The position numbers and the translations under genes were made by a program. The notes beneath the pieces were generated by a model that made no database searches, was not told where the DNA came from, and saw only the letters and a list, made by a program, of their open reading frames with translations. From contig CBDAOI010000004.1 of the NCBI GenBank assembly GCA_965198005.1, positions 1,088,001-1,152,000 on the forward strand: a stretch of DNA of 64,000 nucleotides, in the 5' to 3' direction. This document shows positions 14,677-46,903 of this stretch, one piece after another. Source of the stretch: Spirochaetia bacterium (GTDB lineage: Bacteria; Spirochaetota; Spirochaetia; SZUA-6; Bin103). The number at the start of each line of letters is the position of its first letter. Within the stretch, counting starts at the first letter, position 1.

Positions 14677-15315
14677 TCAGCCGACGCTGAGATGAGTCGA
14701 AGACTCGTCCACGAACGCCCGCCACGCGCCGTACTTGGGGTTGTTCAGGCGCTGCGCGATCGTCGGGTTGGTGTGCGGCTTGGTGGGACGGCGCAGCAGC
14801 CGCATGTTGGCCGCCTGCGGAGTGCGGCCGCCCTTGCGCGAATTGCAGGGCACGCAGGCGGTCACCAGATTGTCCCAGGTGTCACGGCCGCCCAGCGAGC
14901 GCGGTACCACGTGGTCGACCGTAATGTCGGCGTTGGAGACCCGCTTGCCGCAGTAGTGGCACCGGCCGCGGTCGCGGGCATGGATGTTGCGGCGCGTCAG
15001 GCGCACGTCGCGCCGCGGTCCGCCGCCGTACCGCAACAGGCGGATGACGCGCGGCACGGCCAGCACCAGCCGCGGCGTCCGCACCCAGTCGGGCCGCTCG
15101 GGCGCACCCCCCTCGATCGCGGCCCGGGTCGTCCAGACCAGCTCCGAGAGCACGATCCAGGAGTCCAGATCGTAGGCCTGAAACCCGCCCCCGTCGGTGG
15201 TTACGACCTCCGCCGCGTCCCGCACCAGCAGAATGAAGGCGCGGCGCGCGCTGGTGATGCGTACCGCGACGTAGCCGCTGTTGAGCACGAGGACATTCGA
15301 TTCCAGAGATGACAA
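14677..15315 (-). CDS. HNH endonuclease (McrA-like)
   Basis: VLVLN..Y N-terminus, RD..RCHYCG, TVDHVVPRSLGG..TWDNLVTAC..CN..KG. Confidence 0.92.
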   Translation of the reverse strand: MSSLESNVLVLNSGYVAVRITSARRAFILLVRDAAEVVTTDGGGFQAYDLDSWIVLSELVWTTRAAIEGGAPERPDWVRTPRLVLAVPRVIRLLRYGGGPRRDVRLTRRNIHARDRGRCHYCGKRVSNADITVDHVVPRSLGGRDTWDNLVTACVPCNSRKGGRTPQAANMRLLRRPTKPHTNPTIAQRLNNPKYGAWRAFVDESSTHLSVG

Positions 15316-15461
15316 GTCGGCCGCGCCCCCGTGCCTGACATATAAGCACGCCCGCCGGGCACCGTCAAGGCAAGCTTGCGAGCCCGATGTACCACCCCAT
15401 GCAAGTGTGATAGGGTGCTAGCCGCCCCGCGGGGCACCACAACTGGTGCGAGGGGAGTCCG

Positions 15462-16640
15462 TTGTTAGCCGAAGGAACCGTAGTCCACAGCCAGCCGACC
15501 CCGGAATGCCTGGGCGGTCGGGTCGCCACCCCGGCCCTCGTCTATGATCAAGGACGGTTGGGGACCCTGGCGGGTGTGGCACGACAGTTCCGCGAGCGAT
15601 TCGGCGTCAACGTGCTGTACGCCGCAAAGGCGTGCGCCTTCTTCGACGTGTTGCGAGCGCTCGCTCCATCGTTGGACGGGTTTGCCGTCAGCTCGTTGTT
15701 CGAGGCACGGATCGTGCACGACCTGTACCCGCACAGCCCGCTACATCTCACCACGCCGGGTCTGCGCGACGACGAAGTCGACGAGCTTGCCGAGATCTGC
15801 AGTTTCGTGGCGTTCAACTCGGAGACCCAGTTGTACCGCTTCGGACCAGCAGTCCATGGCTGCGCCAGCGTGGGGCTCCGGGTCAACACCCGGATCTCCA
15901 ACGTAAGGGACTCCCGCTACGATCCAGCCGGGCGACGCTCCCAGCTCGGCGTTCCCCTGGCCGATCTACCCGAAGTGCTCGCAGCATCGCCGGTCGCCGT
16001 GAACGGGTTGCATTTCCACACCAACGCCGACTCGGAAGACCTGACCGAGCTCGAGGAGAACGTGGAGGCGCTCGCTGCAGCAGTCGTCGGCATCGGTAGC
16101 TTCGACTGGGTGAACTTCGGCGGCGGTTACCTGTTCGAGAACGTCGTGGCGTTTGAGCCACTCGAACGATCCGTTACGCTGGCGAAGCGGTGCCTGGCCA
16201 ACGCAGTCTTCGTCGAGCCTGGCGCGGCACTGGTACGCAGCGCGGGCCACTTGGTTGCGAGCGTCATCGATATCTTCGAGAGGCATGACACTCGAATCGC
16301 CATCCTCGATACGTCCGTCAACCATCTTCCGGAGGTGCTGGAGTTCGGCTATCAGCCTGAAGTCGAGGGAAGTACCGTAGATGGTGATCACGAATACGTT
16401 CTGGCGGGCGGGAGTTGCCTTGCAGGCGATACGTTCGGCAGGTATCGGTTCGATGCCCCACTCTCTATCGGAACGACCATCACCTTCATCGAGGCGGGGG
16501 CGTATGCGCAGGCCAAGTCCCATCGGTTCAATGGAATCAACCTGCCCGCGGTGTGGATCGCTTCCCCGGACGGAAGCCTCACCGAGCGCCAGATGCTCGA
16601 CTATGCAAGCTACCTGGAGCACTGGATGCCCAATGCCTGA
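15462..16640 (+). CDS. PLP-dependent group IV decarboxylase, carboxynorspermidine-decarboxylase (NspC)-like
   Basis: TPALVYD, YAAKAC (PLP lysine), GLRVN, GLHFH, NFGGG, EPG, GSCLAGDTFG, K..RFNGINLP. Confidence 0.85.
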   Translation: MLAEGTVVHSQPTPECLGGRVATPALVYDQGRLGTLAGVARQFRERFGVNVLYAAKACAFFDVLRALAPSLDGFAVSSLFEARIVHDLYPHSPLHLTTPGLRDDEVDELAEICSFVAFNSETQLYRFGPAVHGCASVGLRVNTRISNVRDSRYDPAGRRSQLGVPLADLPEVLAASPVAVNGLHFHTNADSEDLTELEENVEALAAAVVGIGSFDWVNFGGGYLFENVVAFEPLERSVTLAKRCLANAVFVEPGAALVRSAGHLVASVIDIFERHDTRIAILDTSVNHLPEVLEFGYQPEVEGSTVDGDHEYVLAGGSCLAGDTFGRYRFDAPLSIGTTITFIEAGAYAQAKSHRFNGINLPAVWIASPDGSLTERQMLDYASYLEHWMPNA

Positions 16641-18004
16641 CGACGTGAGACAACGATCCATCGAGATAACGGTAGACTTGGCGGATCCGGATATGATCGG
16701 ACAGGTACGCGCGGCCGTCGAACGTCAGATTGGCCCGTCCGAGACACCGATCCGGTTTGCCGTGACCAGGTCTGACGGCGACCGTTGGACGTGCGAGCTG
16801 GCGACGCTGACCGGAGAAGTTCGCGGCCCCGGAATCTTCGATTTCCATGCCCGTTCACATGAGGACGCCGACCGGTTCAACCTGGTCATGTTGGTGCCGA
16901 CCGGCATCGGCGCGACCGTCGGCGGCCACGCCGGAGACGCCACCCCCGCCGCCACCCTCTTGGCGAGCGTCTGCGACACCCTGATCACTCATCCGAACGT
17001 GCTCAACGCATCGGATATCATACATATCCCTCCGAACGCGTTGTACGTCGAGGGGAGCTTGATCACGCAGCTCATGATGGGTGCCGTGGGACTTCGCCGC
17101 AGGCGCAACAACCGTCTGCTGGTGCTGGTTCAGGCCCATGAAGATGAGATGTTCACGAACGCGGCCATCAACAGCGTCAACGCCGCCCGCGCGTCGTACG
17201 GTCTGCAGGCGAGCGTAGCGGTTCTCGATCCCCGATTCCGCATGATCTCGGAGTACACGCCCAGCGGTGCCGCCGCGGGCAGGATCGAGGGTATCGAGTA
17301 CGTCCACGACCTGCTCGACACTCGGCGGGGTGAGTTCGATGCCGTCGCAATCACCAGCGTGATTGATCTTCCATTGGAACTGCACGAAAACTACTACCGG
17401 CTTGTGGACGAAGTAGTGAACCCGTGGGGCGGGGTCGAGGCTCTGCTCACGCACGCGGTCTCGTTACGGTACGGAATTCCTGCCGCGCACGCGCCGATGC
17501 TCGAGTCGAGGGCGGTGGCCGAGACCGACTTCGGCGTAGTCGATCCGCGCACCGCCGCCGAGGTCATCTCGCTCGCTTTCCTGCAGTGCGTCTTGCGCGG
17601 CCTCCGGACGAGCCCGGCAATCGCTCCCGCTGCCCACGGCCCCGGCGCGGGCGGCATCCAGTCGGCGAACATCTCGTGCCTGGTCATACCGGATGGCTGT
17701 ATCGGCCTCCCCACCCTGGCCGCGCTGCACAACGGGATTCCCGTAGATCGCCGTGCGCGGCAACACCAATCGCATGCGCAACGACCTCGATTCCCTGCCC
17801 TGGCGCCCCCTGCAACTGTTGCGCGTCGAGAACTACCTCGAGGCCGCCGGCGTCGTAGCCGCCCTCAAAGCCGGAATAGACCCCCGCTCAGTCACGCGGC
17901 CACTTGAGCCAGCTTCGGTTGAACGGCTGGCCGATTCTGATCGCGAGAAGGCTTCGGCTGCCGCTACTGATCTTAGTCCTGAGACCGGCGGTAATGATGC
18001 CTAG
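16633..18004 (+). pseudogene. DUF3326 family protein with one +1 frameshift at ~17746 (real or sequencing error)
   Basis: VPTGIGATVGGHAGDA, LITHPNVLNA, LYVEG, NPWGGVEA, AAEVIS; after HNGIPV an extra G shifts the frame and the family C-terminus (IAVRGN...VENYLEAAGV.AALKAGI) continues in the 17753-18004 frame. Confidence 0.8.
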
Positions 18005-18851
18005 TGATTTCGAGGATCGACCATCCTATGAGGAGTACACGGATTGGTACTCCAAACGGTTTCAGGATGACCTGCGCGATGGCCTTGCAAAACAATGGTA
18101 CGAGGATGTTACCGACGATTCAATTCAGAGGTTGGAGGAGTCTGTCTTTTGGCAGAAACTGCAGGAGCGCTTGAGTGCGTGGAACGAATCCTTTACAGTA
18201 ATCCACGAAGGATTCTCACTATTTGGGGCGACACCTCAGCCGACAGGTATCAAGAAAAAGCCTTTCGATTCAGTGCTGAATAAGTCCTTCAGGTGGAACG
18301 TGCTTGAGAATAGAACATGGCCGGATCCGCCTGAGAGGTTACAGAGTACGGCGTCGAAGTCCGACGAACGCTACCCTGACCACCCGCGGTTTTGGTCTGG
18401 CCCCCACAACTGGCTGGATACCTTCTCCGACATCTTCCGAGTACGGCTCACGACAACCTACTTCGACGGTGTCAGATACTTGGCCGAAAACGTTAAGGAA
18501 CTTGCCGAGCAAATCACTTCGGATCCGCCGGAGTGGCAGCTTCACGCTTCACATGACGGTTATCATGCGGCTCACCTTGGGATTTCTCACCGGTTAGACA
18601 TACTCGACTACGAGAACAACGATCCGGTCCCTGTTCGAATTCAGCTAGAGATTCAAGTGACGACGACGATTCAGGAAACGATCAACGAATTGCTTCATCG
18701 AGTATATGCAGACTGGCGAGTGAATGGTCGTCCTCATGATTGGGAATGGGACCACCGAGACCCTGCTTTCTCGGTAAACTATCTTGGGAGCACGCTTCAC
18801 TACTTGGAGGGAATGATCGTGATGGCACGTGATGAGAAGAGGAGCAACTAA
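17994..18851 (+). CDS. RelA/SpoT-type nucleotidyltransferase domain protein (small alarmone synthetase-like)
   Basis: Synthetase motifs in correct order: KKKPFDSVLNK, DIFRVR, GYHAAH, LEIQVTT, H..Y; no hydrolase or regulatory domains; AT-richer than flanks. Confidence 0.7.
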   Translation: MMPSDFEDRPSYEEYTDWYSKRFQDDLRDGLAKQWYEDVTDDSIQRLEESVFWQKLQERLSAWNESFTVIHEGFSLFGATPQPTGIKKKPFDSVLNKSFRWNVLENRTWPDPPERLQSTASKSDERYPDHPRFWSGPHNWLDTFSDIFRVRLTTTYFDGVRYLAENVKELAEQITSDPPEWQLHASHDGYHAAHLGISHRLDILDYENNDPVPVRIQLEIQVTTTIQETINELLHRVYADWRVNGRPHDWEWDHRDPAFSVNYLGSTLHYLEGMIVMARDEKRSN

Positions 18852-19297
18852 TGGACACTTATTGGCCGGATTACATGGAGGCACCAGTCAGACACAAGTT
18901 GACCGAGGTCATGCAGACGGTGATCGAGAAGCTACCTGAGAAACCTGATAAGGCATTTGTTTGCACGGACAGAAGTGTGGGAGCACGGAGTTATTTTTGT
19001 ATTTGGTTGTTCACCCAGAAACTAATGGTGAAGATTCGTAACTCGCTTAATCAAGATAGAATCCAGTATGAAATGTACCGGTTTGAGAATGCGGTCGATT
19101 GGATCCGACTAAACGCTCGTAGATACGATTTCAAGAAGCCTATGTCGGATTCACAGCTCGATCTCGAGTTCACTACGACTGACGGTGTGTCTGATGAACT
19201 CTCAGCGACGGGAGAAGGATGCCACTATCTGATGGAAATCTACCACGACAGATTCCTGTCGAATTTCGTTGCTACTCGCGGACAGCGATGCGACTGA
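18851..19297 (+). CDS. Hypothetical 148-aa protein, translationally coupled to the RelA/SpoT-like gene
   Basis: TAATG overlap, AGGAG RBS, same AT-richer composition; beta-rich pattern with a C-terminal helix (PH-like fold is a guess). Confidence 0.7.
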   Translation: MDTYWPDYMEAPVRHKLTEVMQTVIEKLPEKPDKAFVCTDRSVGARSYFCIWLFTQKLMVKIRNSLNQDRIQYEMYRFENAVDWIRLNARRYDFKKPMSDSQLDLEFTTTDGVSDELSATGEGCHYLMEIYHDRFLSNFVATRGQRCD

Positions 19298-19902
19298 TTT
19301 CTGCGTGCGGGGTGCTGCTGGCCGTGGCGGCTGCCGTTGGCCTGGGCGAGGGGGCGGCGGAGGGCGAGGTTGAGTTGGGCAGCTACGAGCTGGTGGGGAC
19401 CGGGCACGTGCTGGACCATCCGGCCGGCTGGACGGCGACGCGCGAGACGATGTACGACGAGGGGCGGTTGGTGAACACGCTGACGGTGATCACCGAGCTG
19501 CCCGAGGACCAGGACCTGGCGCGGGTGCCGCGCGGGTACCGGCTGATCGTGGATCACCTGCGGGTCGGGCACTTCGCGCACGCGATCCGCCCGGATGAGC
19601 AGTACCAGTCGCTGCTGGAGTTCTACGTCCGGTTCTACGATTGGCCGGAGCCGGCCGAGACCGAGCTGATCGAGCTGTTCGAGCGGCACGCGGTGCAGAT
19701 GAAGGCGCGCAACGCGGACGGCAGTTGGGAATACGCGGCAGTGGGCGTCGGGGTTTTCCGCCAGCTCCACCGCATCGGCTACGCCATCCAGCTCACCGCG
19801 CCGGCCTCCAAGCCGGTCTGGGAGCGCGAGCCGGTCTGGGCCGCGATCATCGGCAGCGTGCGGCGCGCTCCGGCCGACGCCGCGGGCGATGCCGCCTCAT
19901 GA
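19288..19902 (+). CDS. Hypothetical exported protein
   Basis: Signal-peptide-like N-terminus MRLISACGVLLAVAAAVG; host-like high-GC codon usage. Confidence 0.6.
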   Translation: MRLISACGVLLAVAAAVGLGEGAAEGEVELGSYELVGTGHVLDHPAGWTATRETMYDEGRLVNTLTVITELPEDQDLARVPRGYRLIVDHLRVGHFAHAIRPDEQYQSLLEFYVRFYDWPEPAETELIELFERHAVQMKARNADGSWEYAAVGVGVFRQLHRIGYAIQLTAPASKPVWEREPVWAAIIGSVRRAPADAAGDAAS

Positions 19903-19916
19903 GGAGCACGCGGTAA

Positions 19917-21020
19917 ATGGCCGACCCCCGTTACCGGCGGCTGGCGGACGTCATCGTCCGCCATTCCTGCGCCGTCCGCGCCGGCGACAAGGTGCTGATC
20001 GAGGCCTTCGACCTGCCCGAGCAGTTTCTGGTGGTGCTGATCGACACGGTGGCCGCGGCCGGCGGCCATCCGCTGTGCGTGACCAAGAGCAACCGCGTGC
20101 TGCGCGCGCTCTACCGCAACGCGACGCGCGCGCAGATGGAAGTGTGGGGCAGCGTCGAGCGCCGGCAGATGGAGCAGATGCAGTGCTACGTGGGGCTGCG
20201 CGGCAGCCACAACAGCACCGAGCTGGGCGACGTTCCGCACGAGCGGTACGCCCACTACCAGCGCCACGTCTGGCATCAGGTACACGTGGAGCTGCGTGTC
20301 AAGCAGACCCGCTGGGTGGTGCTGCGCTGGCCGACCCCGTCCATGGCGCAGCAGGCGCAGATGAGCACCGACGCGTTCGAGGAGTTCTTCTTCGACGTAT
20401 GCACGGTCGACTACGCGGCGATGGCCCGCTCGATGGAGCCGCTGCGGGAACTGATGGAGCGCACCGACCGCGTGCGCATCGTCGGTCCCGGCACCGACCT
20501 CTCGTTTTCGATCCGCGGCATTCCCGTGGTCGGCTGCTCGGGCGAGCGCAACCTCCCGGACGGCGAGATGTTCACCAGTCCGGTGCGGAACTCGGTGCAG
20601 GGCACGCTGGCGGTGAACACGCCCAGTCTCAACCGGGGCATCGTGTTCGACGACCTGCGGTTCGAGTTCGACGCCGGCCGGATCGTCAGCGCCGGCGCCA
20701 ACCACGAGCCGGAGCTGCGCCGCATCCTGGATACCGACCCGGGCGCGCGCTACGTCGGGGAGTTCTCCCTCGGCTTCAACCCGCGCATCATGAACCCGAT
20801 GCTCGACACCCTGTTCGACGAGAAGATCGCCGGATCGTTTCACTTCACGCCCGGGCAGGCGTACGCGGAGGCGGACAACGGCAACCGTTCCGAGATCCAC
20901 TGGGACTTGGTGGTAATCCAGCGCCCCGAGTTCGGCGGCGGCGAGATCTACTTCGACGACCGCCTGATCCGCAAGGACGGCGAGTTCGTGCCGGAGGAGT
21001 TGCGCGCGCTCAATCCGTGA
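19917..21020 (+). CDS. Aminopeptidase (M29, AmpS/AmpT-like)
   Basis: NLPDGEMFTSP, GEFSLG.N, LFDEKIAGSFHFTPG, N.S.IHWDLV. Confidence 0.92.
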   Translation: MADPRYRRLADVIVRHSCAVRAGDKVLIEAFDLPEQFLVVLIDTVAAAGGHPLCVTKSNRVLRALYRNATRAQMEVWGSVERRQMEQMQCYVGLRGSHNSTELGDVPHERYAHYQRHVWHQVHVELRVKQTRWVVLRWPTPSMAQQAQMSTDAFEEFFFDVCTVDYAAMARSMEPLRELMERTDRVRIVGPGTDLSFSIRGIPVVGCSGERNLPDGEMFTSPVRNSVQGTLAVNTPSLNRGIVFDDLRFEFDAGRIVSAGANHEPELRRILDTDPGARYVGEFSLGFNPRIMNPMLDTLFDEKIAGSFHFTPGQAYAEADNGNRSEIHWDLVVIQRPEFGGGEIYFDDRLIRKDGEFVPEELRALNP

Positions 21021-45110: not shown

Positions 45111-46903
45111 ATGAGATACGTTCCATTCAGAAAGTGCTTCGCGGTACTGTCCGTGCTCGTCCTGACCGCAACCGGCCTCTGGGCTGCCGCCGCAGCAGAG
45201 GAGCCGGCCGCCGCGATGGAGAAGGAAATGGTGACCGACCCCGCCACCGGCAAAATGATAACCGCGCCCCAGTATGGCGGGACCATCACTTTTGCCATGT
45301 TCCAGATGCCTAGTTCGAACACGGACGCCTATATCGGGGCGGGACACGTGGCGGGAATCATAGCCGGCCTCGTTACAGAAAAGCTCGGCATCCCGGATTG
45401 GGCGGTCGATAGGAATGTCAATGCTCTCACAAGTTCAGTCCTGCCTTTGAAACACATAAACGGGAACCTGGCGGCAAGCTGGGAGACGCCCGACGACACC
45501 ACCATTGTCTTCAAGATCCGCCAGGGCATTCACTTTCATGATAAGGCCCCGGCGAACGGTCGGGAACTCGTCGCGGATGATCTTGCCTATAACTTCCAAC
45601 GAATGTTCGCTCTGGGCAGGTTCGCTGGCAAAGACCGAGCCGGTCAGGCTTGGGGAACGATGGCGTTACCCATCGAATCGGTAGAGGCCCCGACGAAACG
45701 ACGCTGGTTATCAAGTTGAGTCAGCCCGACCAGGGCGCGCTGAACTGGCTCCTTAACTGTTGCCATATGTATATTTACCCTCCCGAGGTCATCGAGCAAT
45801 ACGGCAGCGTTACGGATTGGCGGAACCTCTCTGGCACCGGACCCTTCAGGATGACCGACTTGACCGAGGGCACCTCGGTAACCTATGAAAAGAACCAGAA
45901 CTACTGGAGAAACGACGAGAAATTCCCGCAAAACCGTTTGCCCTATGCGGACAAAGTCGTAGCCCTGATGATGGTAGAAGAGGCCACCCGGCTGGCGTCC
46001 CTGCGCGCGGGCAGGATTGATTATATGGGGTTCATGGGGCCGAACACATTTGTTTCATCTGTGGACACGGCAGCGAATGTAAAGAAAACCAACCCCGAAA
46101 TCGAGCAGTGGTCCTTTGCAATTCGGTCGTTAAACTCTTTTGCAATGAACGTCCAGAAACCACCCTTTAACGACATCCGGGTGCGTCAGGCGATGCAGAT
46201 GGCCCTGGATCTGGAGACCATCCATAATTCCTACCATCAAGGCTATGGAGAATGGGAACCCATGGGGCTGAATGGGCCTGCCTGGAAAGGGTATAACAAC
46301 CCGTATGAAACGTGGCCTGCCGAGGTCAAGAAAACCTATAGCTACGACCCGGAAGGGGCAAGAAGGCTTCTGGCGGAAGCCGGCTATCCCGATGGATTCA
46401 CGACCACGTTGAACACCGATCAAAACCAGTACGATACCGGCTATCGAGAATTGGTGGCTGGCTACTGGTCCAAGATTGGGGTTGAGGTTGAGATTATTGG
46501 CCAGGACACTGCGCAAATCAACGCTCTGGTGCAGGAGCGCAGTGCGGAAGGTTTGATCGATTTCGTTGGCATCGGGGCCGACTACGGGTCGCTTGGTCAA
46601 AACTTCTTTGCTAGTGGTACCTATAATCCTGGCGGAATCAGCGATTCGGCTTTTGACAGCATGGTGGAGGCAGCCGTGGGGGCTACCAACGAGGAGGAAC
46701 AGAAGAGGCTGGCGAAAGAGGCCGATATGTACGCGATCCGGCAGCAGTGGATTATCTGGGGGCCTCGCACTCCCAACGTGCAGCTAGGCCAGCCGTGGCT
46801 GGTCGGTTATAACGGTGAAATCGGGCTGGGTGCCTGTAGTTGGCAACTCCCCTTTTCCCGCCTGTGGATTGATCAGGAGCTAAAGGAAGAAATGGGATAT
46901 TAG
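45111..46903 (+). pseudogene. Family-5 (peptide/nickel) ABC substrate-binding protein with a single -1 frameshift at ~45690
   Basis: Signal peptide, LA.SWE.PD.TT..FKIRQG..FH, GTGPF, PPF.DIRVRQAM, YDPEGARRLLAEAGYPDGF; one C missing in GAGGCCCCGAC (EAPD). Confidence 0.85.

Follow-up and report, generated by a model that had tools for sequence, protein, structure and literature searches.

The window analysed here is a stretch of 64,000 nucleotides (nt) from a Spirochaetia bacterium (GenBank assembly GCA_965198005.1, contig CBDAOI010000004.1, positions 1,088,001 to 1,152,000 of the forward strand), and coordinates below count from its first letter. It carries two overlapping genes, one for a divergent enzyme of the small alarmone synthetase (SAS) type, P0001, and one for a small protein, P0002, referred to as the partner. 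A preliminary description of this DNA, made from the sequence alone, had singled out the two genes as a horizontally acquired module and a candidate toxic SAS (toxSAS) or anti-phage system. The genes are:

17994-18851, plus strand: enzyme gene P0001, 285 aa without internal stop, divergent RelA/SpoT-type (small-alarmone-synthetase-like) pyrophosphokinase
18851-19297, plus strand: partner gene P0002, 148 aa, a second unnamed family, conserved with the enzyme

P0001 contains motifs in RelA/SpoT synthetase order, namely K89-x3-S93-x3-K97-x2-R100, D146-I-F-R149-V-R151 and G189-Y190-x3-H194, followed by E219-I-Q221-V-T-T224 and then H235-x2-Y238. Using HMMER, these were aligned with the corresponding motifs of RelP (Protein Data Bank (PDB) 6fgk) and of the GTP pyrophosphokinases 6fgj and 6ewz. 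The 285-aa open reading frame (ORF) with ordered synthetase motifs of the preliminary description is thus borne out by both translation and alignment. Against the Pfam family RelA_SpoT (PF04607), P0001 gave an E-value of 0.026 and 15.2 bits, under the 27-bit gathering cut-off, and no hydrolase or regulatory domain was found in Pfam, as had been described. A six-frame scan of the genome with PF04607 recovered two other genes and not P0001. Neither P0001 nor P0002 had a match in NCBIfam, or in PADLOC-DB v2.0.0 at E ≤ 10.

Homologues of the enzyme were collected by a word-indexed search, which returned 123 proteins at E ≤ 0.001 that were 39-67% identical to P0001, all ~285 aa long, nearly all metagenomic and none with a Pfam domain. 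With clustering at 50% identity, an exhaustive search yielded 469 cluster representatives at E ≤ 0.001, of which 340 reached E ≤ 1e-10; most are 255-290 aa long and ~30-35% identical. In an alignment of 97 members, K89, D146, D158, G189, E219 and T224 were invariant, and the consensus read K..S...K.YR.NV, NxxWPxPP, DIxRT..VVKYLDG, GYYAxH, EIQITTQLQ, H..YE and WQWDY...NYLGH.LHY.EG. The motif deviations remarked on earlier, EIQVTT and DIFR, proved to be real family signatures (T224 being invariant and R149 99% conserved), and the Trp-rich insertion and tail are kept over the 97 members as NxxWPxPP and WxW(D).

The 97-member profile was compared with PDB sequences and matched RelP (6fgk, E 1.3e-8), RelQ (5dec and 5ded, ~1e-4) and CapRel (7ztb, 7.5e-3), as well as the GTP pyrophosphokinases 6fgj and 6ewz, with the RelP/RelQ matches ranging from E 1.3e-8 to 1e-3. 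A profile of P0001's own subclade matched 6fgk at E 7.8e-5. Pfam RelA_SpoT was reached at E ≤ 0.01 by 27 of the 97 members (best 2.8e-6), and two family members are labelled 'ppGpp synthetase/RelA/SpoT-type nucleotidyltranferase' by JGI. The Atlas model of the member P0207 (predicted template-modelling (TM) score, pTM, 0.82) aligned over residues 30-270 to a GTP-pyrophosphokinase cluster, with TM-scores of 0.63 by query and 0.79 by target; the cluster is of 210 aa, and the alignment spanned nearly the whole length of P0207. The stand-alone, divergent SAS-like enzyme proposed earlier is thus supported by the family and subclade profiles and by a homologue's model. In PADLOC v2, 7 of 36 relatives obtained only weak PDC-S33 core matches (E 4e-4 to 4e-2).

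The active site is well conserved. K89, S93, K97, R100, D146, G189-Y190, E219 and Q221 are retained in 84-90 of 90 members of the broad family and in 33-35 of 35 members of the subclade. Within the subclade, the donor-site residues K89, S93, K97, R100, D146, E219 and Q221 are present in 34-35 of the 35 sequences; in the G-loop, whose Gly-Tyr stacks on the acceptor base, G189 is found in all 90 broad and all 35 subclade members and Y190 in 88 and 33 of them, respectively. The ATP/Mg-binding residues described for FaRel2 are K66, S70, K74, R77 and D90, together with the G-loop residue Y128 and also E145 and Q147 (PMC11782079); their equivalents in P0001 are K89, S93, K97, R100, D146, Y190, E219 and Q221. 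Three features are non-canonical: the position matching FaRel2 R64 varies across the family, the Gly of D..G is Arg149 in P0001, and the Arg of EIQIRT is mostly Thr in the family. Collectively, the profile and fold matches and the retained ATP, Mg and G-loop residues indicate that P0001 is a real, very divergent SAS-like enzyme of the RelA/SpoT synthetase fold, and that it is probably catalytically active. Its family is large and has no name in Pfam, NCBIfam or PADLOC, and it may coincide with one of the 30 named SAS subfamilies.

The partner gene is joined to the enzyme gene at the junction ...AACTAATGGAC, where the stop codon TAA (18849-18851) shares its final A with the ATG (18851-18853) of P0002, and AGGAG lies ~8 nt 5' of this ATG. 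The TAATG junction to a 148-aa ORF had therefore been read correctly. P0002 belongs to no Pfam family at E ≤ 10, and a set of 40 partner sequences has no Pfam family either; the earlier label 'unknown' holds across Pfam, NCBIfam, PADLOC and PDB sequences. No likeness to the known toxSAS neutralisers was found by sequence in the PDB or Pfam, and the enzyme and partner profiles are unrelated to each other.

Close homologues of P0002 number 30, at 47-64% identity. The longest contig of 17 of them has the same size as that of an enzyme homologue, compared to 1 in a control shifted by one base. A hidden Markov model of close partners was then matched to the ORF directly downstream of the enzyme in 27 loci (25 metagenome contigs, one Dehalococcoidia metagenome-assembled genome (MAG) and one family relative), and it recognised this ORF in 23 of them, so that enzyme homologues are indeed linked to the small gene. 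These loci lie in host DNA of 25 to 68% GC, and in the listed pairs enzyme and partner overlap or are separated by a gap of ≤20 nt. At loci L035 and L042 the sequence stops at or right after the enzyme gene, and L034 has a shortened downstream ORF that is similar to the partner by eye and was not scored. At L054 (1605-3975), the partner is replaced by a 527-aa DUF262 (Pfam GmrSD_N) protein matching PADLOC PDC-M55C at E 1.2e-48; the enzyme there retains all catalytic motifs, and the DUF262 protein may act as a different partner or as an effector. Enzyme and partner also agreed in their pairwise distances, with correlations of r 0.78 in the subclade (n=18, none of 999 permutations as high) and r 0.51 in a broad set (n=12, 8 of 999 as high). 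Because relatives share history, this correlation speaks for co-inheritance, not for binding. The partner is truly coupled to the enzyme and conserved with it.

In the alignment of 40 partner sequences, Y8 and C124 are invariant and the pattern is one of a helix, several strands and a helix. The partner family is acidic, with a median isoelectric point (pI) of 4.9. The Atlas model of the partner from locus L039 (pTM 0.79) resembles DUF3908 clusters (feature score 0.95, TM 0.70/0.78) and also bacterial pleckstrin homology (PH)-domain clusters (TM 0.53-0.56 by query, 0.50-0.67 by target). This homologue's model offers a lead, suggesting that the partner fold is probably PH-like with an N-terminal helix. 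Assignment to DUF3908 itself was rejected and stays a lead, as none of the 40 partner sequences matched its Pfam model at E ≤ 1 and the genome gave no match either; a full-text literature search for DUF3908 found no paper.

The two-gene module of the preliminary description therefore stands as a conserved pairing, but in the window it is not free-standing. The pair is the distal half of a tight four-gene operon of nspC-like decarboxylase, DUF3326 protein, enzyme and partner, which the preliminary description had not recognised and of which the first two genes are:

15462-16640, plus strand: nspC-like pyridoxal-phosphate decarboxylase, 392 aa, first gene of the operon, with Pfam Orn/DAP/Arg decarboxylase domains
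16633-18004, plus strand: DUF3326 gene (Pfam PF11805, E 7.7e-69), split over two frames in the window

The decarboxylase matched NCBIfam TIGR01047 (nspC) at E 1.8e-67 and 227 bits, under the 409-bit equivalog cut-off, and the carboxynorspermidine decarboxylase 9eaf in the PDB at E 1.1e-58. A DUF3326 profile found no relative in the PDB (best E 0.21). In the window, the DUF3326 frame is broken by one extra base at 17745. The near-identical DUF3326 protein P0307 reads through the break, and contigs from three runs of three studies all lack one letter at 17745; in an independent run, a 2475-nt contig over 16977-19400 showed 4 differing letters and a single gap, at 17745. The break is thus an assembly error or private to this assembly; probably, the gene is intact in nature and the break an assembly error. 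Read without the extra base, the gene runs to 18004, and it shares 8 nt with the decarboxylase gene and 11 nt with the start of the enzyme gene. P0307 is 100% identical to the window's DUF3326 protein over residues 1-372 and ends ...VERLVNN, compared to ...VERLADSDREK... in the window, so its haplotype seems to part from that of the window right before the enzyme gene. Across 15200-19950, no RNA family was found in Rfam at E ≤ 1, and no sigma-70-like promoter was found. Contig depth over enzyme and partner relative to their neighbours was 12 versus 22-25 in X1, 8.5 versus 9-15 in X4 and not lower in X3, a measure that cannot rank parts of one locus. Contigs of the RNA-library run X10 covered parts of the decarboxylase gene, the start of the DUF3326 gene and the 3' end of the partner gene and left the enzyme gene uncovered, which indicates neither transcription nor silence.

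The decarboxylase gene is directly followed by a PF11805 gene in the window, in a genome of the same family (G022) and at the Dehalococcoidia locus. G022 has the identical four-gene order, with all four genes at ~50-53% GC in a ~70% GC genome, followed by a BsuBI/PstI-type restriction-modification pair. The Dehalococcoidia MAG likewise has the identical order, at no fewer than one locus in a scan of genome contigs, followed by IS21. Among the 119 nearest homologues of DUF3326, at least 55 lie on a contig of the same size as that of an enzyme homologue. In a single metagenomic record, P0152 (739 aa), DUF3326 (residues 84-420) is fused to the enzyme (462-738); since it is only one record, it lends weak support, and either a genuine fusion or a frame error from sequencing could explain it. 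A second candidate fusion, the 611-aa DUF3326 match P0389, was rejected as an internal duplication. Enzyme and DUF3326 distances were correlated (r 0.43, n=47, 0 of 999 permutations as high), and the nearest neighbour was the same for both proteins in 18 of 47 pairs. The window's decarboxylase is closer to that of G022 (64% compared to 49%), whereas its enzyme is closer to that of the Dehalococcoidia MAG (58% compared to 46%), and GC content at third codon positions (GC3) is 0.79 before and 0.59 after the boundary between the DUF3326 and enzyme genes, a step peculiar to the window. Judged by these comparisons, the modules of the operon have been shuffled.

In a quick maximum-likelihood tree of 126 sequences, midpoint-rooted for drawing only, the 35 subclade rows split from the other 91 with an SH-aLRT of 100. 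On this tree the DUF3326-linked enzymes form one well-supported, distinct group. They differ from the broad family (n=90, against n=35 in the subclade) at the following positions:

Position 155: K/R in 81 of the broad family; mostly T/N/S/A in the subclade
Position 186: K/R in 66; S in 25 of the subclade
Position 191: Y in 88; H in 33 of the subclade
Position 266: H in 90; S in 22, H in 7 and N in 6 of the subclade
Position 151: R in 16; R in 34 of the subclade

Residues 186 and 191 lie on either side of the G-loop, and their changes suggest an altered acceptor in the subclade enzymes. The enzyme family is acidic (median pI 5.8), P0001 has a net charge of -17, and the median net charge of the subclade enzymes is -15.7 compared to -5.0 in the broad family. 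The DUF3326 proteins of the subclade are likewise acidic, so the charge may reflect the host proteome. The toxSAS that target tRNA depend on basic patches, as described in PMC11782079, and the acidity of the enzyme family therefore disfavours this mode. It argues against the tRNA-targeting mode of CapRel and FaRel2, a mode of action that the preliminary description had listed, and points to an acceptor that may be a nucleotide-type small molecule rather than tRNA.

The DNA of the enzyme-partner pair is foreign to the host. It lies in the following island:

15380-19297: foreign island of ~3.9 kb holding the four-gene operon, left edge approximate

An HNH gene and an M29 peptidase gene are 98-164 bp apart in five of five genomes of the same genus and 4.6 kb apart in the window, and the left flank aligns with the empty site up to ~15378. 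GC content is 0.48-0.52 over 18000-19250, compared to ~0.70 on either side; the enzyme and partner genes have 0.51 and 0.47, respectively, compared to 0.68-0.75 for native neighbours, and the bin 18001-19000 is the lowest in GC of the whole window. GC3 is 0.59 in the enzyme gene, 0.55 in the partner gene and 0.55-0.79 in the island as a whole, compared to 0.86-0.94 outside. The AT-rich character reported for the pair is thus real, at ~50% GC where the genome has 70%. Of 61 relatives searched, two (G000 and G022) were found to contain the enzyme family, and the same two contain DUF3326. Full-length members of the enzyme family were found in a single genome out of 401 from the window's phylum, where 53 other matches cover the core only, within longer or canonical RelA/SpoT homologue (RSH) genes, and likewise in one out of 401 from the phylum of the Dehalococcoidia MAG. 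The horizontal acquisition that had been proposed accords with this, as the pair was not found in 59 of 61 relatives and lies inside 4.6 kb that splits genes adjacent in all five congeners.

Some other features of the genome and window are noted. The host genome also encodes a long RSH (contig C2) and, elsewhere, a canonical 219-aa SAS (G000 contig C4:912167-912532; L074:1327-1986, minus strand), ~176 kb upstream of the window, which matches PF04607 at E 2.2e-9, above the cut-off. The rest of the 4.6-kb stretch, between the island and the M29 gene, is occupied by an ORF at 19288-19902 (plus strand), which is native-like (GC 0.71) and has a signal-peptide-like N-terminus. Its counterpart in congeners is 79-81% identical and lies elsewhere in the genome, so the insertion came with a rearrangement. 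The HNH gene (14677-15315, minus strand) encodes a 212-aa stand-alone protein with an HNH domain similar to the ones in IscB/Cas9 and Septu PtuB; it was rejected as part of the system, being native and next to the peptidase gene in five of five congeners. The second lowest-GC stretch of the window (45111-46903, 0.55-0.59) contains two overlapping ORFs, 45111-45719 and 45650-46903, apparently one split solute-binding-protein-like gene, followed by two hydrophobic permease-like ORFs (names given by eye). This split may be another single-base assembly error.

In other metagenomic loci, among contigs long enough to judge, the neighbours of the enzyme gene were as follows:

L035: PifA (E 4.5e-100) and a Mutator transposase
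L042: type IV methyl-directed restriction enzyme
L039: NB-ARC/TPR protein and a methylase fragment
L045: TrwC relaxase
L053: DUF222 HNH protein
L040: ThsC-like HIT protein
L041: ordinary genes, malic enzyme and a sigma factor
L038: ordinary gene, sigma-54 regulator
L054: ordinary gene, DNA polymerase A

Proximity to defence islands, a check suggested in the preliminary description, was thus seen in part: several loci keep company with restriction, PifA, restriction-modification or IS21 genes, but L041, L038 and L054 have ordinary genes.

Together, these results lead us to the tentative explanation, whose likelihood we put a little short of even, that P0001 is a toxSAS-like effector which its partner controls and whose target is a small molecule, not tRNA. 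By analogy, the enzyme-partner pair is probably a new toxin-type or defence-type module. P0001 would move pyrophosphate from ATP onto a small acceptor, and the partner, probably PH-like, would bind the enzyme and either restrain it or switch it on; binding and control by the partner are most likely because of the analogy with toxSAS systems and with PANGU, discussed below. Once released, for example by phage attack or by loss of the element, the enzyme would poison the nucleotide pool or make an alarm nucleotide. Given that a long RSH and a canonical SAS are encoded elsewhere in the genome, a housekeeping role is not expected. The enzyme and the downstream protein form an old, mobile two-gene module; in one clade, including the window, this module has come to follow a portable pair of amine-making genes in a single operon, all of which is transferred horizontally. 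The link to DUF3326 is younger and narrower than the enzyme-partner module itself. The results show the fold class, a conserved active site, the conserved pairing, the foreign origin and the operon linkage. Enzyme-partner binding, the product and a defence role are postulated, and it is solely from gene architecture and neighbourhoods that we infer toxicity, neutralisation and an anti-phage function.

Several observations weigh against this explanation. Searches of plasmids and phages by tblastn with P0001 and with the central member P0165 gave no match, and IMG/VR scanned with two alignments held no relative. The neighbourhood evidence comes from about ten contigs long enough to judge, and the enzyme family and partner are absent from PADLOC v2. 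Compared with PDB sequences at E ≤ 10, solved toxSAS antitoxins included, the partner had no match. In addition, the pair is tightly coupled to two biosynthetic genes across the subclade; such coupling is unusual for a plain toxin-antitoxin pair, and a metabolic role also fits it. The enzyme and PH-like partner of the DUF3326-linked clade might serve the amine pathway without toxicity, which we consider a live but unlikely possibility. The enzyme might phosphorylate or pyrophosphorylate a pathway intermediate or pathway nucleotide, or the partner might bind the amine product and tune the enzyme, which would make a regulatory nucleotide. Consistent with this are the recurrence of the four genes, overlapping or almost abutting and identically ordered, in the window, in G022 and in the Dehalococcoidia MAG, the fusion P0152, the shared contig sizes (55 of 119) and the correlation of enzyme and DUF3326 distances (r 0.43). 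The same holds for the single split of the linked enzymes (SH-aLRT 100), their far greater acidity (-15.7 compared to -5.0) and the changes around their acceptor loop (S instead of K/R at 186, H instead of Y at 191, and loss of K/R155 and of H266), as well as for the joint need for PavA and PavB (DUF3326) to make a condensed diamine, as described in a preprint. However, the two-gene module is much wider, with DUF3326 found in 0 of 25 broad-family metagenome loci among the neighbours scanned, and the rate of evolution is higher in enzyme and partner (mean distance 0.47) than in DUF3326 (0.33). The modules are also shuffled, with the decarboxylase nearest to G022, the enzyme nearest to Dehalococcoidia and the same nearest neighbour in only 18 of 47 pairs. 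Enzymes of the RelA/SpoT fold are known to act on the ribose 3'-OH, not on amines, which further counts against a role of this kind.

The same coupling could also mean that the four genes are one composite conflict system, with the amine pair functionally wired to the pyrophosphokinase and its PH-like partner, which we regard as quite unlikely. The amine, or an amine-modified nucleotide, would then be the ligand read by the PH-like protein or the acceptor modified by the enzyme, and the DUF3326-linked enzymes would have adapted to a cationic ligand through their acceptor-loop changes and strong acidity. It is very unlikely, in our estimate, that P0001 is a non-toxic extra alarmone synthetase with a regulatory partner that adds a stress-signalling input. 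The nearest solved relatives, RelP and RelQ, are non-toxic according to PMC7229694, and the P0207 model aligns nearly full length to a 210-aa GTP-pyrophosphokinase cluster, but the sporadic distribution, the foreign DNA and the presence of a long RSH and a canonical SAS in the host speak against it; the obligatory overlapping partner and the mobile and defence neighbours better fit conflict modules. We give very little credence to a catalytically dead scaffold that merely retains the fold. Thr in place of the EIQIRT Arg in most members, D..R in place of D..G and the unconserved Arg matching FaRel2 R64 would be in keeping with it, but across 125 sequences of ~30% mean identity there is little or no variation in the Asp that binds Mg, in the catalytic Glu and Gln, in the Tyr of the G-loop or in the K/S/K/R that bind triphosphate. 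Dead enzymes seldom show such invariance of the active site.

If P0001 is a toxSAS-like effector controlled by its partner, its family would represent a large, unnoticed toxin or alarmone branch of RelA/SpoT enzymes, its 469 clusters having been missed by Pfam thresholds, NCBIfam and PADLOC. The partner would be a new class of cognate protein, probably PH-like, with an invariant Tyr and Cys, and the operon would link nucleotide-alarmone chemistry to a still undescribed decarboxylase-DUF3326 route to polyamine-type amines. In line with the preliminary description, neither PADLOC v2 nor the papers searched contained a named system that the pair matches. Full-text literature searches found no paper joining RelA SpoT, pleckstrin and antitoxin, none joining carboxynorspermidine decarboxylase and alarmone synthetase, and none tying DUF3326 or the decarboxylase-DUF3326 pair to a RelA/SpoT-like enzyme; DUF3326 itself is mentioned in three papers on other subjects.

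Among known enzymes, RelP (SAS2/YwaC) and RelQ (SAS1/YjbM) are the best PDB matches of the family profile (6fgk, 6ewz, 5dec, 5ded). They share with the P0001 family a single-domain synthetase fold, similar size and the same motif order, including the donor-site K/S/K/R, the Mg-binding Asp, the GY loop, E-x-Q and H..Y. In contrast to RelP and RelQ, the P0001 family scores under the Pfam threshold, has EIQ[IV]TT for EIQIRT and D-I-x-R for D-I-A-G, and adds an NxxWPxPP...GW..P.NWF insertion and a Trp-rich C-terminal extension. It also has an obligatory downstream partner, lies on foreign mobile DNA and is sporadically distributed.

Jimmy et al. (PMC7229694) predicted the toxicity of five SAS subfamilies from their conserved bicistronic arrangement, and the neutralisers described for toxSAS include pseudo-zinc-finger, Tis1-like, Panacea and small alarmone hydrolase (SAH) proteins (PMC11782079). 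The pair in the window is, like FaRel2-ATfaRel2, PhRel, PhRel2, unfused CapRel and FaRel/Tas1 with Tis1-type immunity, a mobile, overlapping bicistron of enzyme and small protein, and catalytic residues are retained as in FaRel2. Unlike toxSAS antitoxins, P0002 resembles no solved protein by sequence and has no Pfam family, and it seems PH-like, a lead from the homologue's model, rather than a pseudo-zinc finger. P0001 is acidic, unlike the tRNA-binding toxSAS, and the two genes share an operon with biosynthetic genes, unlike toxSAS pairs.

Type I PANGU consists of the YejK-like nucleoid protein Pag1A and the GRel toxSAS Pag1B; as described there, the partner can be an activator or sensor, not an antitoxin, and the product can be an alarmone by which infection is aborted (bioRxiv 10.64898/2026.04.06.716658). 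Like the pair in the window it is a two-gene operon, and its toxSAS-type enzyme requires its partner. In contrast to Pag1A, P0002 is an acidic 148-aa protein without a Pfam family and is thus not a YejK-like DNA clamp, and no acidic DNA-mimic domain is evident on P0001. A preprint reports that PavA and PavB (DUF3326) are both required for the condensed diamine in pavettamine synthesis. The decarboxylase in the window differs from that system in being an nspC-like stand-alone enzyme and no PavC is present, but as in PavA/PavB, a decarboxylase of the alanine-racemase fold is directly followed by DUF3326 on horizontally moved DNA.

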